Shown: positions 45,938 to 51,907 of the stretch, in pieces
Layout: every line of letters starts with the position of its first letter
Position numbering within the stretch: position 1 is the stretch's first letter
Origin: Nitrospirota bacterium
GTDB lineage: Bacteria > Nitrospirota > Thermodesulfovibrionia > Thermodesulfovibrionales > Dissulfurispiraceae
NCBI GenBank assembly: GCA_963790025.1
Contig: CAWBMP010000004.1
Coordinates: forward strand, 1,440,001 to 1,504,000
Direction of reading: 5' to 3'
Length of the DNA stretch: 64,000 bases
Position numbers and translations under genes: made by a program
Notes under the pieces: generated by a model
Databases searched by the model: none
Seen by the model: the letters and a program-made list of their open reading frames with translations, nothing else
What the model was told of the DNA's origin: nothing

Positions 45938-46019
45938 GCCGAAGTGGTGGAACTGGTAGACACGCACGTTTGAGGGGCGTGTGGGGCAACCTATGCGGGT
46001 TCGAGTCCCGCCTTCGGCA
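45938..46019 (+). tRNA. tRNA-Leu(GAG)
   Basis: GCCGAAG/CTTCGGC acceptor stem, anticodon loop TT-GAG-GG, long variable arm, GGTTCGAGTCC T arm; CCA not encoded. Confidence 0.97.
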
Positions 46020-46232
46020 TTTTTCTTTTCTTGCATATTCATATGCGTACACAATTAAGTTCTTACTTAAACAATAAAGTCTTTACTTAACCAATTAAGT
46101 TCTTACATTTCGCATCGTAAATTTCACCTCGGATTGTTTGCAAGTTCCGGAGCAAACCTGCTACTCGGTGATGTATTAACCTGAAACCGAGAGGAGAGCC
46201 CTTTCTGGTAAGGATGCGTCCACCCTGCTATA

Positions 46233-46349
46233 CGCGCGGCTGACATCCTGTCAAAGACGTTGAATGCCGATCGTAACATCTATTTGTGGCGATTTTGGGG
46301 TGAAGGGAAATGTAAACAATATAGACCTGACCCTCAGTTCTCTCTCACG
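46233..46349 (+). repeat. 117-bp inverted repeat, left copy
   Basis: Reverse complement of 51116-51232 with one mismatch. Confidence 0.95.
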
Positions 46350-46362
46350 CAGGAGCAACAGC

Positions 46363-47085
46363 CTATGGTTTCGGAGTAAAAGAGTATAGCGTATATGCAC
46401 ACGGTATCACGCCAGTATCCAGTCGAAGATCAATTTCCGGCAGTTTGTCAATATCAGAAAGTTGGCCGTTTGGTTCTGCATAGATCTCCGAAGCAAAAAC
46501 ATCCTGCCTCCGGAATGCCGAAAATCGCAGGTAAAGGAGATTCTCCAACTCATTATTTCTCGTATCAAATACCCTTAACCCTTTGGCTTTAACATGTTCA
46601 TTCGTTGCAAAGACTGTCTCAAAATGTTTGTTAATATCCAAAACAAACAAGGCGCCATTAAATTTTATAACTCTCCATAGCTCATCGGAAATCTTTAGCA
46701 GGTCAGCATCGCTGGAAAAGCAGTCAAAAACATTGGAACAAAGAACAATATCAAACATACTATTTTCAAAAGGTATTTCCAGAATTGATGCTACTTGAAA
46801 GTTCATGCTTTGGGGAGACATTCTTTTGCAGATGTCAATTGCTTTCTCGCTTATATCAAAACCATAACAATTCTCGGGCCTTGTGCGGAGTTCGGAAAAA
46901 AATCTCAGCTTTTCACCACCGGCGCACCCGGCTTCGAGTATTTTATATGTTGAAAGCTCGGTTTTACCCAGCATTATCATCATTCCTATCATGTATTTCC
47001 ATACCCGGTAGTTATTAAAAAGTCTGTAGAGATCCGCTAATCCCACCGGTAGTGAGCCATCCTGCCCGTATTCGAAAGTCGCCAT
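46363..47085 (-). CDS. Class I SAM-dependent methyltransferase (cargo)
   Basis: ILEAGCAGG, GFDIS, IPFENSMFDIV. Confidence 0.85.
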   Translation of the reverse strand: MATFEYGQDGSLPVGLADLYRLFNNYRVWKYMIGMMIMLGKTELSTYKILEAGCAGGEKLRFFSELRTRPENCYGFDISEKAIDICKRMSPQSMNFQVASILEIPFENSMFDIVLCSNVFDCFSSDADLLKISDELWRVIKFNGALFVLDINKHFETVFATNEHVKAKGLRVFDTRNNELENLLYLRFSAFRRQDVFASEIYAEPNGQLSDIDKLPEIDLRLDTGVIPCAYTLYSFTPKP

Positions 47086-47283
47086 TTTAAAATACCTCTC
47101 TTGTAGATTTTAGATTGACCATGCAGTCCTTTTTTTATCTTTCCTGCTACTTAAAATAAGTTACTTTCAACAAAGCTGTATGCTTATGGTTACAGCATGT
47201 ATTATACCAGACAATTTGTGGCAGCTTTCAGAAGGGAGGGCAGTGGGCTACTTTGAATTAAGAAGCTATGATATACTGTGGGT

Positions 47284-48252
47284 ATGACAACATTGGCAGC
47301 CTTATTAACAAAGGATGCGCTGATAATGGGCTGTGATAGCTTAGGGTCTGTAACTAGGCCATTCGTTGATCCTCTTGACTTGATGGATTACTTTGAAAGA
47401 ACCGCCCATGGCTTTGAGCAGAAAGTAGATAGCAATAATAAACCTATAATGAGTATTGACGATATCTTTAACAAAACTCGCGATATCCCTTATAATCATA
47501 TGACTTATGTCGATAAGCTGTTTTCGTTAGAGCCTTTACCTATGGGTATTATGATTACTGGTATCGCATCTATTGGAGACTATACAATTAAAAATTTGAT
47601 AAATCAGTTTATGGGTAAGGAGCCCATCTTTAAAAATAAAGGCAAATCAAAGAATTATACAGTTAGTTCGATAGCGAATAAGATATTGAAATTTATGAAA
47701 ACACATTACGATGCTGAGTACGGAAGTGGCCAAACCAAACAATCACTGGAAATGATGATAGGTGGTTATGATCTACAAAAACATATTCCAACTGTACTTA
47801 GAATACATGTGCATGAAAATAAAGTAGAAAAAACCTTAAAAGATTTTGGTATAGTATTTGGCGGACAAATGACTGAGATTCAGAGAATCGTGTTTGGCAC
47901 AGATGATTTCAACAGATTGAAGCTAATGGTAAGAAGTGATAAAATTTTGAACACATATTATGATGAAGTTACAACTTTTTTGAGGAACAACAACATTAGC
48001 ATTGATATTCCAAAACCGGACACAAAAAACAAACATAATTTTTTCCAAGGATGGGATATCAATGGATTTGACGCTTTTTGGGGTGATTTTTCAGAAAAAA
48101 ATGCCATTGAATGCGTTAAATTCTTTATAGATGTCATGGTTAAGACACAATTATTTAGTGATACAATGCCTACAGTCGGTGGGGATATTCATTTGGCAAA
48201 AATTACTAAAGCTGAAGGATTCAAGTTTTGTTATCAAGAAAAGGAGGGATAG
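47284..48252 (+). CDS. Proteasome beta-subunit-like Ntn hydrolase (putative)
   Basis: N-terminal MTT, LIMGCDS, DKLFSL, MIGGYD, C-terminal TVGGDIHLAKIT. Confidence 0.65.
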   Translation: MTTLAALLTKDALIMGCDSLGSVTRPFVDPLDLMDYFERTAHGFEQKVDSNNKPIMSIDDIFNKTRDIPYNHMTYVDKLFSLEPLPMGIMITGIASIGDYTIKNLINQFMGKEPIFKNKGKSKNYTVSSIANKILKFMKTHYDAEYGSGQTKQSLEMMIGGYDLQKHIPTVLRIHVHENKVEKTLKDFGIVFGGQMTEIQRIVFGTDDFNRLKLMVRSDKILNTYYDEVTTFLRNNNISIDIPKPDTKNKHNFFQGWDINGFDAFWGDFSEKNAIECVKFFIDVMVKTQLFSDTMPTVGGDIHLAKITKAEGFKFCYQEKEG

Positions 48253-48254
48253 AC

Positions 48255-48434
48255 ATGCAAAAAAGCTTGAAATACATAACTGCCGAAGAAATGAATATGT
48301 ACATTAAATATGCAGAGTATTTTAATGTTAAGGGTTTTTGTGCATCGACTTTAAATCGGTCAAATATACAGATTGATAAATTATTACAGCCGATGAATAA
48401 AGCTATTAGTAAGAAAAAAGTTACAAAGAAATAA
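48255..48434 (+). CDS. Small basic hypothetical protein
   Basis: AAGGAGG RBS; starts 2 nt after the upstream stop. Confidence 0.5.
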   Translation: MQKSLKYITAEEMNMYIKYAEYFNVKGFCASTLNRSNIQIDKLLQPMNKAISKKKVTKK

Positions 48435-48448
48435 GAGTCAATAAAGGA

Positions 48449-49273
48449 TTATAGTAAATTTATAATTTCTTCAATCTCCCAAACATGATCTGATATTCCT
48501 GCCTCCATGGCTGGGGTAACTCTCAATGTTTGGTGAATCCGGCAAAAGTTGTAATGCATGAAATGCAGAGCCACAGCACATTCAAGGTTCTCGACCTTCT
48601 TTGAAAAAGCGTTTGTCAATCTGGTAAACCTTCTCATGCTCATGCGCATTGTGAGGTTCTGCCGTTCCACATAGCTTGTAGAAATGTGTTTCTTATCGGG
48701 ATTGCCTTTTATATTTGCTGTTCGTGTTCCAGTGCAAATGGCGGGGCTGTACTTCTTTTGATTGTCAGGACTGTCATTGCCATATAGTTTAACGAGCATG
48801 GCATAATCAATATCACTGCCGAATGCATTTTCAACGGCATCGACATATACCCTGTAACCATCTGTAGTTAATTGGACACGGTGTTTTAATCTGCTTGCAA
48901 GGTCATTTATAAATGCCTTTGCCGCCTGTACGCTACGATCTCCGACATACCAGTTAGCTATAAGCGTTGAATCAGCGCATAAGGCTGTCCACGTCCACAC
49001 GTCACCGTAACCAAACTGCCCTTCAAATTCGGGTGGCACATTCTTATCCTTTGCATAACAGAAAGACCATATTTCGTCACACTGGATACGCTTGCAGGTA
49101 ATTTGACGGACGAACCTATTGTGATACTCCTTACAGACTTTGCCGAGATCAACAAGAAGCTTCAATACCGTCTTCTTTGCAGCGCCAGTCATTCTACAAG
49201 TGGCACGGATAGAATTGCCTTCAACTAAGCAGCTTACTAGTTGCGCTCTTTTCCTTGTATCTAACTGGCTCAT
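48449..49273 (-). CDS. IS1-family DDE transposase (single ORF)
   Basis: HTH (EGNSIRATCR), IQCDEIWSF, LTTDG, TSYVERQNLTMR...FSKK. Confidence 0.9.
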   Translation of the reverse strand: MSQLDTRKRAQLVSCLVEGNSIRATCRMTGAAKKTVLKLLVDLGKVCKEYHNRFVRQITCKRIQCDEIWSFCYAKDKNVPPEFEGQFGYGDVWTWTALCADSTLIANWYVGDRSVQAAKAFINDLASRLKHRVQLTTDGYRVYVDAVENAFGSDIDYAMLVKLYGNDSPDNQKKYSPAICTGTRTANIKGNPDKKHISTSYVERQNLTMRMSMRRFTRLTNAFSKKVENLECAVALHFMHYNFCRIHQTLRVTPAMEAGISDHVWEIEEIINLL

Positions 49274-49279
49274 GATTTT

Positions 49280-49308
49280 ATTATACTTGACCGCTCAAGC
49301 ATTGTCAA
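49280..49308 (-). promoter_or_regulatory. Consensus sigma70 promoter of the transposase, with palindromic operator; leaderless
   Basis: TTGACA-17 nt-TATAAT-6 nt-ATG; the spacer contains CTTGA-GCGG-TCAAG. Confidence 0.8.
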
Positions 49309-49422
49309 GTAAAAAATGTCGACATGAGACACCTTCGTAAGCATTACTTGACAAACTGCATGGTCAACTTGATAAGATAGCTAGTAAACTTGACGATATA
49401 ATGTCGTTATGGAGGCCATCGT

Positions 49423-50655
49423 ATGACAGATCAAGATTGGGATCAATTAGCTATTGATGCCGGGAAAGTTTTTACCCCTGCGGCACCTATAGATGAAGAG
49501 CGTTTATTCGCAGGTCGACTTGAACAACTACGACAGGTTATTGATGCAATAAATCAGAAAGGACAACATGCAATTGTTTTCGGGGAAAGAGGCGTTGGAA
49601 AAACTTCTCTAGCGAATATTATCGCTACAAAAATAAGTGGTGCCTTAATCATAGCTCCTCGTATTAATTGCGACAGCACTGATACTTATTCAAGTCTTTG
49701 GAAAAAGATATTTGACCGTATTAATTTGACAAAGGAAGTTCACAAAATCGGGTTTACTAATGGTAGCAACATTGAACCCATAAATATTTGTGAACAATTT
49801 GCTGAGAGTGATATTTCTACTGATAACGTTCGTTCATTACTTACTTATCTATCTGAACATTTTTTGATTATCCTTATCATTGATGAATTTGATCGTATTG
49901 CTAAGCCCGAAGTAAGAGCAGCAGTTGCTGATACTATCAAAACATTATCAGATCATTCCATTGCGGCTACGATTGTCCTTGTTGGTGTCGCTGACAGCGT
50001 GAACGATCTAGTAAGTGAACATCAATCAATTGAACGAGCTTTAGTTCAGATTAGAATGCCCCGCATGTCCAATGATGAGCTTTATAAAATAGTAGACAAT
50101 GGATTGAACATATTAAAAATGTCAATTGATGATGACGCAAAAAGAGAAATAGTTTTATTGTCCAGAGGATTGCCACATTATACTCACCTTCTATCTTTAT
50201 ATTCAGCAAGAGAGGCTCTTGATGGAAGGTCATTGAATATCAATATTGGACATGTGGAATCTGCTATTTCCGAAGCACTGCAAAAAGCCCAACAAACGAC
50301 TCAGACTGCATATCATAAGGCAACAATGAGTGCAAGAAGAGACAATTTATTTTCCCAGGTTTTGCTTGCATGTGGCCTTGCAAAGACTGATGATTTAGGT
50401 TATTTCTCTGCTGGCGATATTAGAATCCCTTTATGTGAAATCATGGGAAAGTCATATGATATTGCTAGTTATTCTAGACATTTATATGAATTTTGTGAAC
50501 CAGCGCGCGGTCCAATATTACAAAGAACTGGAGTCAAACATCGATACAAATTCCGTTTTATTAATCCTTTGATGCAACCGTTTATTATTATGCAAGGTCG
50601 GGTAACAAATCTTATTGATAGACAGAAGTTAGAATCTATAAAAAATAAGTACTAA
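49423..50655 (+). CDS. AAA+ ATPase (Orc1/Cdc6- or STAND-like) with probable C-terminal winged helix
   Basis: FAGRLEQL, Walker A GERGVGKT, Walker B IIIDEFD, GLPHY; GGAGG RBS. Confidence 0.85.
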   Translation: MTDQDWDQLAIDAGKVFTPAAPIDEERLFAGRLEQLRQVIDAINQKGQHAIVFGERGVGKTSLANIIATKISGALIIAPRINCDSTDTYSSLWKKIFDRINLTKEVHKIGFTNGSNIEPINICEQFAESDISTDNVRSLLTYLSEHFLIILIIDEFDRIAKPEVRAAVADTIKTLSDHSIAATIVLVGVADSVNDLVSEHQSIERALVQIRMPRMSNDELYKIVDNGLNILKMSIDDDAKREIVLLSRGLPHYTHLLSLYSAREALDGRSLNINIGHVESAISEALQKAQQTTQTAYHKATMSARRDNLFSQVLLACGLAKTDDLGYFSAGDIRIPLCEIMGKSYDIASYSRHLYEFCEPARGPILQRTGVKHRYKFRFINPLMQPFIIMQGRVTNLIDRQKLESIKNKY

Positions 50656-50900
50656 GATTTAGGGATTTTAGCCCATCTTGTATGAGCAGCTTTAATAGCA
50701 ATATGCTTTCTCGATTCCGCAGATAGCTTCTCAGCGCGCGCTTTGCCGCCTTTCAACCCTCCAAGTCTGCCAAGGGCAACTGCGGCAGGATTCTTTTCTT
50801 TGGCAGGCTGTTCCGGTCGGGAACGGTCAGAAGTTACAGCTTCAACTATTGATGCGGCGATCTGGTTTACATCTTCGGTTTTCTTTCTCTTTCTTTCCAT
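50652..50900 (-). CDS. Small basic protein with KNPAAVALGRLGGLKGG motif
   Basis: KGG-type motif; preceded by a promoter related to the transposase promoter. Confidence 0.8.
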   Translation of the reverse strand: MERKRKKTEDVNQIAASIVEAVTSDRSRPEQPAKEKNPAAVALGRLGGLKGGKARAEKLSAESRKHIAIKAAHTRWAKIPKS

Positions 50901-50905
50901 GCTTT

Positions 50906-50934
50906 AGTGTAGCATGACCGTTCAAGCATATCAA
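50906..50934 (-). promoter_or_regulatory. Sigma70-like leaderless promoter with operator shared with the transposase promoter
   Basis: TTGATA-17 nt-TACACT-5 nt-ATG; shares ATGCTTGARCGGTCA. Confidence 0.7.
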
Positions 50935-51115
50935 GATACCGGAAATTCAAAGTAGCCAACTACCGAAGGGAGTTACATTACGGAAACACTTTTTAACAAA
51001 TTTCTGTGTAAATCATACTCATTTTCCTTTTTCAAGCCCTCTGGATTCGGAGATGCAACTAATAAACCACTTCCGAGGATTACGGGCTTTAGGAGGTGAT
51101 GTCTGTTTCAGCGAA

Positions 51116-51232
51116 CGTGAGAGAGAACTGAGGGTCAGGTCTATATTGTTTGCATTTCCCTTCACCCCAAAATCGCCACAAATAGATGTTACGATCGGCA
51201 TTCAACGTCTTTGACAGGATGTCAGCCGCGCG
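51116..51232 (-). repeat. 117-bp inverted repeat, right copy
   Basis: Reverse complement of 46233-46349. Confidence 0.95.
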
Positions 51233-51907
51233 GGTTATCAGGGTGTACTCGGGGGAAATTCGGCCCTAAAAAGTATGAACTTTATTGTTTGCTGTTTTAA
51301 GAGCTTTATTGTTTTCCTCTGAAAAAAAGTAAGAACTTTGATGTCTTGGGCTTTTTTGTCGTATTATATGAATCAACAGGTTAGGTTGTCATTTTGTAGA
51401 GACTTTATTGTCTACAGATAATTAAATAAGTTACATACCTGAAACTCTCATTATTACCGTGAACAAAATAATCCCTTCGCTATTAAGAAAAAGTTCTGAT
51501 TTGCGAGAGCAGAAAGCGACAGTTTTTATGATAAAAACGGTCGCTGTCCCTATTTGTTCTTTTACCGGCATGACAGCGTAACACCCGCCGCGACTCCAGG
51601 GAATAGGCCTGATGCGTTTTTTATTTTGTTTTTTATTGACATAATATTTTTATGGGTTTAACATAGATCAGTAGTTCATAACTTTTTTGAGCTAAAAGGA
51701 GGTGAAGTCAATGGATGATGGCCCTGGAAACAGTAGTAACATAACATCGGCCGTGCGGATGTCTGCGCGAAGGGGGACCTTCTGTTCATTGCTCGCCTCT
51801 ATGTCAACTCTTCTCTAATCCCGTCCGCTTTCTTCTTCACAAGACTTCGCCGGCCAAAACACGTAGCGGTTTTCGCTGTTGCTATTGAATAATGGAGGTG
51901 AAGTGTC

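Follow-up and report, generated by a model that had tools for sequence, protein, structure and literature searches.

A 117-nucleotide repeat module at equivalent positions of three Tn7-like transposon ends in a Nitrospirota genome

The window analysed here is a 64,000-nucleotide stretch of a Nitrospirota genome (GenBank assembly GCA_963790025.1, contig CAWBMP010000004.1, positions 1,440,001 to 1,504,000), and the subject of this report is a transposase-less Tn7-like element of 5,379 bp (46042-51420) that is inserted there behind a tRNA-Leu(GAG) gene. Just inside its two ends the element carries long inverted repeats, here called arms, which bracket a methyltransferase gene and a nested insertion sequence (IS). 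With moderate confidence, the arms are read as copies of a repeat module that was recently copied into equivalent positions of three transposon ends; their inverted layout would follow from the inverted ends, and any inversion between them would be passive, via RecA.

The element and its repeat arms

The features of the element and its immediate flank are as follows.

45938..46019, plus strand: tRNA-Leu(GAG), the attachment landmark (ARAGORN; Rfam, 51.3 bits), with the left tip of the element 22 nt downstream
46037..46041: left target flank ATTCA, a 4/5 match to the right flank ATTAA and thus a degenerate 5-bp target duplication
46042..46232, plus strand: left end module, whose tip is TATGCGTA; 46048-46106 hold three 20-bp TnsB-type sites in tandem, and the inner motif is GTCCACCCTGCTATAC (46218-46233)
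46233..46349, plus strand: left copy of the repeat module, whose outer part holds the hairpin TGACATCCTGTCA and whose inner part holds the TIRYT-type terminal repeat GTAAACAATATAGACCTGACCC, then TCAGTTCTCTCTCACG
46363..47085, minus strand: methyltransferase cargo gene of 240 amino acids (aa), class I S-adenosylmethionine (SAM)-dependent (Pfam Methyltransf_11/25/31; NCBIfam UbiE/MenG-type matches sub-threshold only)
47231..47238 (left) and 50965-50972 (right): perfect 8-bp target duplication GAAGGGAG of the nested IS
47239..50964: nested IS1-family IS of 3,726 bp with 21-bp inverted repeats and passenger genes, present as a single genomic copy
51116..51232, minus strand: right copy of the repeat module, which differs from the left copy at one position and faces inward, co-directional with the methyltransferase gene
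51233..51420, minus strand: right end module, with inner motif GTACACCCTGATAAC (51248-51234), four TnsB-type sites (51271-51414) and tip TATCTGTA
51392-51363, minus strand: conserved, inward-pointing promoter-like site in the right end

The preliminary description of this DNA, made from the letters alone, had reported near-perfect inverted repeats, and its account of their anatomy holds throughout. Each arm (46233-46349 and 51116-51232) measures 117 nt; the two agree at 116 of 117 positions (99% complementary) and enclose a spacer of 4,766 nt. The match of arm to arm (BLAST within the own genome, E 2.8e-55) is far better than chance would give. The weaker similarity noted further outward extends to 46218 and 51248, about 15-18 nt beyond the arms, in the same BLAST comparison, and the distance of about 190 bp to the element ends comes to 191 and 188 nt when measured from the refined tips at 46042 and 51420. 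Both the palindrome TGACATCCTGTCA (46241-46253) and the cargo-facing motif TATAGACCTGACCC (46320-46333) are present in the left arm and mirrored in the right. Furthermore, no direct duplication surrounds the arms, no Pfam recombinase domain occurs in the five open reading frames (ORFs) scanned inside the element, and 1,032 bp with the one 240-aa methyltransferase gene, close to the estimated 1 kb, are left between the arms once the IS and one copy of its duplication are removed. An RNA gene, an attC-like hairpin site or a promoter within the module was considered and rejected: the module folds no better than its shuffles (z 0.0 to 0.57 with RNA parameters, for four sequences from the three loci, the left copy on both strands), Rfam gives no match at E up to 1, and the promoter scan lists no promoter-like site within either arm.

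The surrounding element is a non-autonomous Tn7-like transposon with unusual TAT tips. Like Tn7, it carries multiple TnsB-type sites at both ends, inverted between the ends (three on the plus strand at the left, four on the minus strand at the right) and forming the sole genomic cluster of this site variant; its 8-nt tip followed by GACAATAAAGTCT (a 13-mer) is identical to the Tn7R tip as printed in PMC1475584. The element also resembles Tn7 in its orientation-specific insertion downstream of a conserved gene, and four left ends stand at equal distance after the tRNA-Leu 3' end: one in the window genome (G000), one in G005 and two copies in G006. The sister copies share the 5-bp target duplications of Tn7, which are perfect in two sister mini-elements (TATCA in G006, 1,087 bp; AGTAG in G155, 965 bp). 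These sites, the tip and the sister duplications together uphold the earlier call of Tn7-like ends. The element differs from Tn7 in its tips, which, as in its relatives, read TAT...ATA and not 5'-TGT...ACA-3', and in the absence of tnsA, tnsB, tnsC and tnsD from the element and from searches of the genome. To our knowledge, Tn7 ends have not been described as carrying long inner inverted repeats, a point on which the literature was not searched.

The element is filed as non-autonomous because neither it nor the genome yielded tns genes. Specifically, a domain scan of the ORFs inside the element found no tnsA, tnsB, tnsC or targeting gene, and in the window genome (98.8% complete) rve-type transposases gave 0 hits (positive control, 6 of 14 genomes) and Mu-transpos_C gave no match, the same family being present in 39 of 317 genomes of the order. 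Searches of the genome for TniQ and TnsA found nothing, with controls likewise silent. Homologues of the right end occur in G006, G012, G154, G155, G195 and G315; none of 26 ORFs near the homologous right ends has a tns or integrase domain, and BLAST of the right end against plasmids gave no meaningful match. An autonomous partner was sought among the TnsB-like genes of the 39 order genomes, and the four loci inspected had no matching end sites. Tyrosine integrases lie nearby in G006 and G002, beside repeats of tRNA 3' ends, and a reading of the 20-bp repeats as attachment sites of a tRNA-island integrase was rejected because the 20-bp repeats lie outside the islands, the tips are inverted with 5-bp duplications, and the tip matches that of Tn7R.

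One module in three transposon ends

A search for other copies of the repeat, as the preliminary description had proposed, found a third, solo copy. That description had counted a lack of further copies among the outcomes that would refute its idea, and this outcome did not arise. The third copy lies 280 kb away at locus A (C4:1206370-1206490) and shares 111 nt with the left arm at 100% identity; it has the same orientation within a different Tn7-like end, one that ends in TGT, and begins 176 nt from the tip. This end has the tip TGTAGGAT and three GCA(A/G)TAA(A/G)GTTTT sites (GCAATAAAGTTTTG), begins 17 nt after a phoH-like gene, and is followed, beyond the third copy, by AbiU2, Schlafen-like and IS genes. 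Its sister end at locus B (C4:1618047, reverse strand), which abuts the gyrB stop codon, likewise belongs to this second, TGT-tipped end family. The ends at loci A and B are 87.6% identical over 177 nt, up to GTCCACCTGATAC, which is the motif that forms the outer boundary of the module.

This junction is common to all copies. Each of the three starts right after the motif GTCCACC(C)TGA.A.C (GTCCACCCTGCTATAC, GTACACCCTGATAAC and GTCCACCTGAAAAC) and points inward, with module-to-tip offsets of 191 nt (left), 188 nt (right) and 176 nt (locus A). The weaker similarity beyond the arms is explained by this common end motif, which precedes all three copies. The motif also occurs at locus B and its G007 orthologue, and in ends of G012, G315, G276, G277, G254 and G302. 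Since locus A belongs to a different end family, shared descent with the window ends cannot explain the 100% identity, and the 99-100% identity of three copies in two end families thus suggests recent spread.

Two observations concern the second end family itself. Its two ends in the window genome (C4:1206204 and C4:1618047), 88% identical and inverted, stand 412 kb apart, one on each side of the window; the end beside gyrB has a partly eroded orthologue in G007, which marks it as an old relic, and no partner end was found for either. A TGT-tipped end of the same family in G276 (C125, 1245-1560) has a 762-aa TnsB-like ORF about 14 kb away on the same contig and may, together with it, represent an autonomous member; about 250 nt from its tip it bears GACCCCGGTCAGTTCTCTC, which resembles the inner edge of the module.

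The inner 30 nt or so of the module, GTAAACAATATAGACCTGACCC, are its only widely recurring part. The module is matched in 9 of 317 order genomes, in all except G007 only over this repeat, which is the same motif as the TATAGACCTGACCC repeats that face outward around three single-gene units of about 930 bp in the window genome. Each unit encodes an intact Y1_Tnp protein; the 285-aa product, with a Y1_Tnp and a helix-turn-helix (HTH) domain, scores 90 bits, against a cut-off of 80, with the NCBIfam model for REP-associated tyrosine transposases (RAYTs), and the genome holds 11 Y1_Tnp genes in all. The link that the preliminary description drew between the cargo-facing motif and RAYT-associated sequences was therefore correct: three RAYT-like (TIRYT) genes of this genome have the motif as their terminal inverted repeat. 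Di Nocera et al. (2013, PMC3733652) give GGGGWSAS as the consensus of TIRtron repeats; the resident TIRtron repeats (GGGGTCAG) fit it fully, the module repeat (AGGGTCAG) at 7 of 8 positions. TIRYTs are equated with TnpA-Y1 subclass 2.1, or RAYT group 1, with a C-terminal HTH, by Quentin et al. (2018, PMC6006769).

The repeat family extends well beyond the window genome. TAWAGACCTGACCC occurs in 65 of the 317 order genomes, with about 190 hits (150 listed and 40 unlisted), the reversed control giving 10, and its repeats build miniature derivatives of 70-120 bp in G057 and G058. The miniature derivatives and the wide occurrence indicate that the family is, or formerly was, mobile. Gene-less miniatures of this size, bounded by GGGTCAGGTC..., were seen at G058:C21, G057:C8, G058:C29 and G057:C30, and many miniature copies stand at contig ends in G056-G058, G064 and G152, which suggests active families there. 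Inward-facing pairs of TIRYT repeats, which share only 23-35 nt, surround accessory genes in G153, G158:C14 and G228:C1. In G153 (C91, 740-5228), an MvaI/BcnI-type endonuclease, Vsr, a C5 methylase (Dcm) and a proteasome-like ORF lie between inward solo TIRYT repeats.

The module itself, gene-less and with a single repeat, is related to TIRtron repeats and is not a TIRtron. At its inner end it has the repeat found in inverted pairs around the Y1 and HTH genes of the genome, and solo, dimeric and clustered forms of TIRtron repeats are described in PMC3733652. Unlike TIRtrons, the module has one repeat joined to about 85 nt of unrelated sequence, its three copies all lie in Tn7-like ends, and the pair in the window faces inward. 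G007 holds a sequence that is 78% identical across most of the module, and no Tn7-like sites lie near it, which implies that the module can exist apart from such ends. In public genome contigs a module-specific pattern returned the G007 record alone; five public metagenome contigs shared only a common 20-nt word, judged to be chance. A second pair of the 117-nt module was found neither in the 317 order genomes nor in two public collections.

In the Tn7-like family the module appears dispensable. The inner inverted repeat is absent from the complete sister mini-elements of G006 (1,087 bp) and G155 (965 bp), and when the module was aligned locally with 13 other ends, nothing unit-like emerged (z -0.7 to 6); the family therefore does not seem to require it.

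Weighing the explanations

The favoured reading, recent copying of a module into transposon ends, builds on features that are observed directly: how the element is laid out, how many module copies there are and which junction they share, what the motif is, and the lack of tns and recombinase genes in the element. The arms would be two of three near-identical copies of a module of about 117-135 nt, placed at the inner edge of non-autonomous Tn7-like end modules. Because the left end module is the inverted counterpart of the right one, filling the equivalent spot in both gives a long inverted repeat around the cargo. The module would be a chimera, its outer half distantly akin to the post-motif sequence of other ends in the Tn7-like group and its inner half a solo terminal inverted repeat of TIRYT type (RAYT group 1, Y1/HUH). 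Spread may have followed either of two routes, both of which fit the shared junction and orientation: motif-directed, orientation-specific insertion by a resident Y1 transposase, or gene conversion between paralogous end modules. Single-strand Y1 enzymes of the IS200/IS605 group insert orientation-specifically beside target words. The repeat probably has no dedicated function, and its sole predictable activity would be the occasional RecA-dependent inversion of the 4.8-kb cargo.

A partial precedent comes from insertion sequences that home to other mobile elements: IS4321 and IS5075 target the terminal repeats of the Tn21 family, and IS1111-attC elements likewise target repeats. The module shares with them a fixed position and orientation in the end of another mobile element. 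The homing IS, in contrast, are autonomous and have their own transposase, whereas the module is a gene-less 117-nt sequence whose targeting is inferred from three copies.

Several findings weigh against the favoured reading. Each module has one TIRYT-type repeat, whereas TIRtrons and the miniature derivatives have two, and the resident TIRtron repeats differ slightly from that of the module (AACATTATAG versus AACAATATAG). Evidence for autonomous TIRYT mobility is lacking, according to Quentin et al. (PMC6006769). Similarity between loci A and B does not resume past the module, no clean pair of filled and empty sites was found, and in silico deletion of the right copy gave no longer similarity to the right end of G006. 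After its motif, locus B is 48% identical to the outer half without gaps over 60 nt (per-position p 1e-4, about 1e-3 after 13 offsets). Of 9 related ends, 4 have their best ungapped match immediately behind the motif, although none of these matches is significant by itself; the outer half may therefore be an old resident of these ends. Finally, with three copies only, no targeting statistics are possible.

The last of these similarities lead to the strongest rival, which we regard as plausible and clearly the less probable. Here the module, or its outer half, is a conserved subterminal functional part of the ends, for instance an accessory protein-binding or regulatory site, with copies homogenised by gene conversion. 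The recurrence of the GTCCACC... motif in the window ends and in all the other ends listed above, the weak positional similarity of the outer half after the motif in 4 of 9 ends, the presence of GACCCCGGTCAGTTCTCTC in G276 at a comparable distance from the tip, and the nearly equal offsets from the tips are all consistent with such a part. Against it speak the two complete sister mini-elements that lack the inner repeat, the absence of unit-like similarity in the 13 other ends, and the fold and Rfam results. Gene conversion, moreover, would call for homology at the cargo-facing side of the module, where no such homology can be seen.

The idea of the preliminary description, that the arms are recombination sites that invert or exchange the cargo, appears improbable, and programmed inversion or cargo swapping is unsupported. 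Inversion could, as an example, toggle the methyltransferase between sense and antisense relative to a fixed inward promoter in the right end; alternatively, the junction of motif and module could serve for swapping cassettes. Invertible switches such as Hin/Gin, fimS and the shufflons do resemble the locus in having inverted repeats around a gene-sized segment beside a fixed promoter-like site. At the right end, that site is ATGACA-18-TATAAT (11 of 12 matches), conserved and reading along the direction of the methyltransferase gene. Cargo differs among elements with homologous ends, and the similarity between loci A and B ends exactly at the module boundary. Resemblance to G007 across the methyltransferase block sets in precisely at the module's inner edge, the flanks of this block differ in each of three genomes (G000, G007 and G003), and in three further genomes inward TIRYT pairs enclose accessory genes, in one case a restriction-modification system.

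Against a switch or swap stands the absence of an enzyme. No invertase, integrase or other recombinase gene was found in the five ORFs of the element (Pfam, NCBIfam and PADLOC) or in eight neighbouring ORFs (Pfam alone), and in contrast to the known switches the pair has no recombinase gene nearby and arms several times longer; at 117 bp they are far above the site length of known invertases. The searches for a second module pair came back empty, the third copy stands alone, the repeat is missing from the sister mini-elements, and the inward-facing pairs elsewhere share only their 23-35 nt. The cargo, furthermore, is an ordinary methyltransferase of small-molecule type. A single public sequencing run contains the region (0.23 of words, Logan contigs), in the form of 15 short pieces at a depth of about 3, none of which crosses either arm and none of which shows a joint; at this depth the run speaks neither for nor against a second orientation.

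A related view, to which only a small probability is attached, treats the junction of GTCCACC...TGA.AAC and module as a cargo-entry point at which a Y1 (TIRYT) or other single-strand enzyme loads gene-sized blocks by way of the module's terminal repeat. The methyltransferase block of about 750 bp, found in three contexts in three congeners, would be one example, and inward-facing TIRYT pairs would mark captured cassettes, such as the restriction-modification system in G153.

Similarly unlikely is that 46233-51232 (5.0 kb) is a mobile element in its own right, with 117-bp termini (GCGCGGCTGACATCC...) and the methyltransferase aboard, inserted in the palindromic centre of a miniature Tn7-like element of about 375 bp that consists of the left and right end modules only. 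Once the segment is removed, its flanks GTCCACCCTGCTATAC and GTTATCAGGGTGTAC do make an imperfect palindrome, and sister elements go down to 965 bp. The segment has no flanking target duplication and no second copy, however; the third module is solo and followed by unrelated DNA, and the TIRYT-type repeats face inward, opposite to those of TIRtrons and miniature derivatives.

An assembly artefact is very improbable: chimeric long reads can yield long inverted repeats, and raw reads offered no check of the region, but different unique sequence lies on both sides of the arms, the third copy is at an unrelated locus, and an independent run yields short contigs that agree with the unique parts throughout, one of them (50962-51112) stopping 4 nt short of the repeat boundary.

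The findings matter mainly for two groups of elements. The biology of TIRYTs and RAYT group 1 is essentially unknown, and the uptake of cargo by Tn7-like elements is partly understood; the locus, with a TIRYT-type repeat lodged three times at one precise spot in Tn7-like ends, offers a testable interaction between the two families. If the simpler reading is true, the addition is modest, namely a selfish repeat that incidentally makes a long inverted repeat in a decayed transposon, together with a warning against taking every long inverted repeat around cargo for a switch. If the cargo-entry view is true, RAYT group 1 enzymes, which have no known role, would gain a function in loading transposon cargo.

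Cargo, nested insertion sequence and neighbourhood

By its best matches, the methyltransferase appears to be of small-molecule type and not a member of the DNA methylase families. The gene block (46349-47098, about 750 bp) is 83% identical to its counterpart in G007 and 79% identical to that in G003. The shared bare block spans from about 13 nt before the methyltransferase start to about 14 nt beyond its stop (G007:C17, G003:C66), and in G007 it stands between genes whose orthologues in the window genome lie about 110 bp apart (C4:159365-159478). Neither a TIRYT repeat nor a Tn7-like site was found within 1.5 kb of the methyltransferase homologues in G007, G003 and G004. The cargo ORFs of two sister elements (277 aa in G006 and 243 aa in G154) have no relative in the window.

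The transposase of the nested IS matches the NCBIfam IS1 model at 56.8 bits, under the cut-off of 100, and Pfam finds an AAA/TniB-like ATPase in the IS. Among its passengers are a 324-aa ORF without a family match, whose N-terminus (MTT...GCDSLGS) resembles by eye an Ntn/proteasome-type hydrolase, a 410-aa AAA/STAND-like ATPase with weak matches to the mad8 and IetA defence models, and an 82-aa ORF.

The right ends of G006, G155, G315, G154 and G012 preserve the stretch around the promoter-like site (51363-51392), which resembles the tnsAB promoter inside Tn7R in its placement. The tRNA-Leu(GAG) gene is an insertion hotspot, with further loci at G006:C8 (1128-11400), G002:C5 and G005:C25. At the G006 locus, a tyrosine-integrase island bounded by the tRNA 3' repeat is followed by a mini Tn7-like element, a second, partial island and another left end. 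In G154 and G195, elements stand tip to tip, 4 nt apart.

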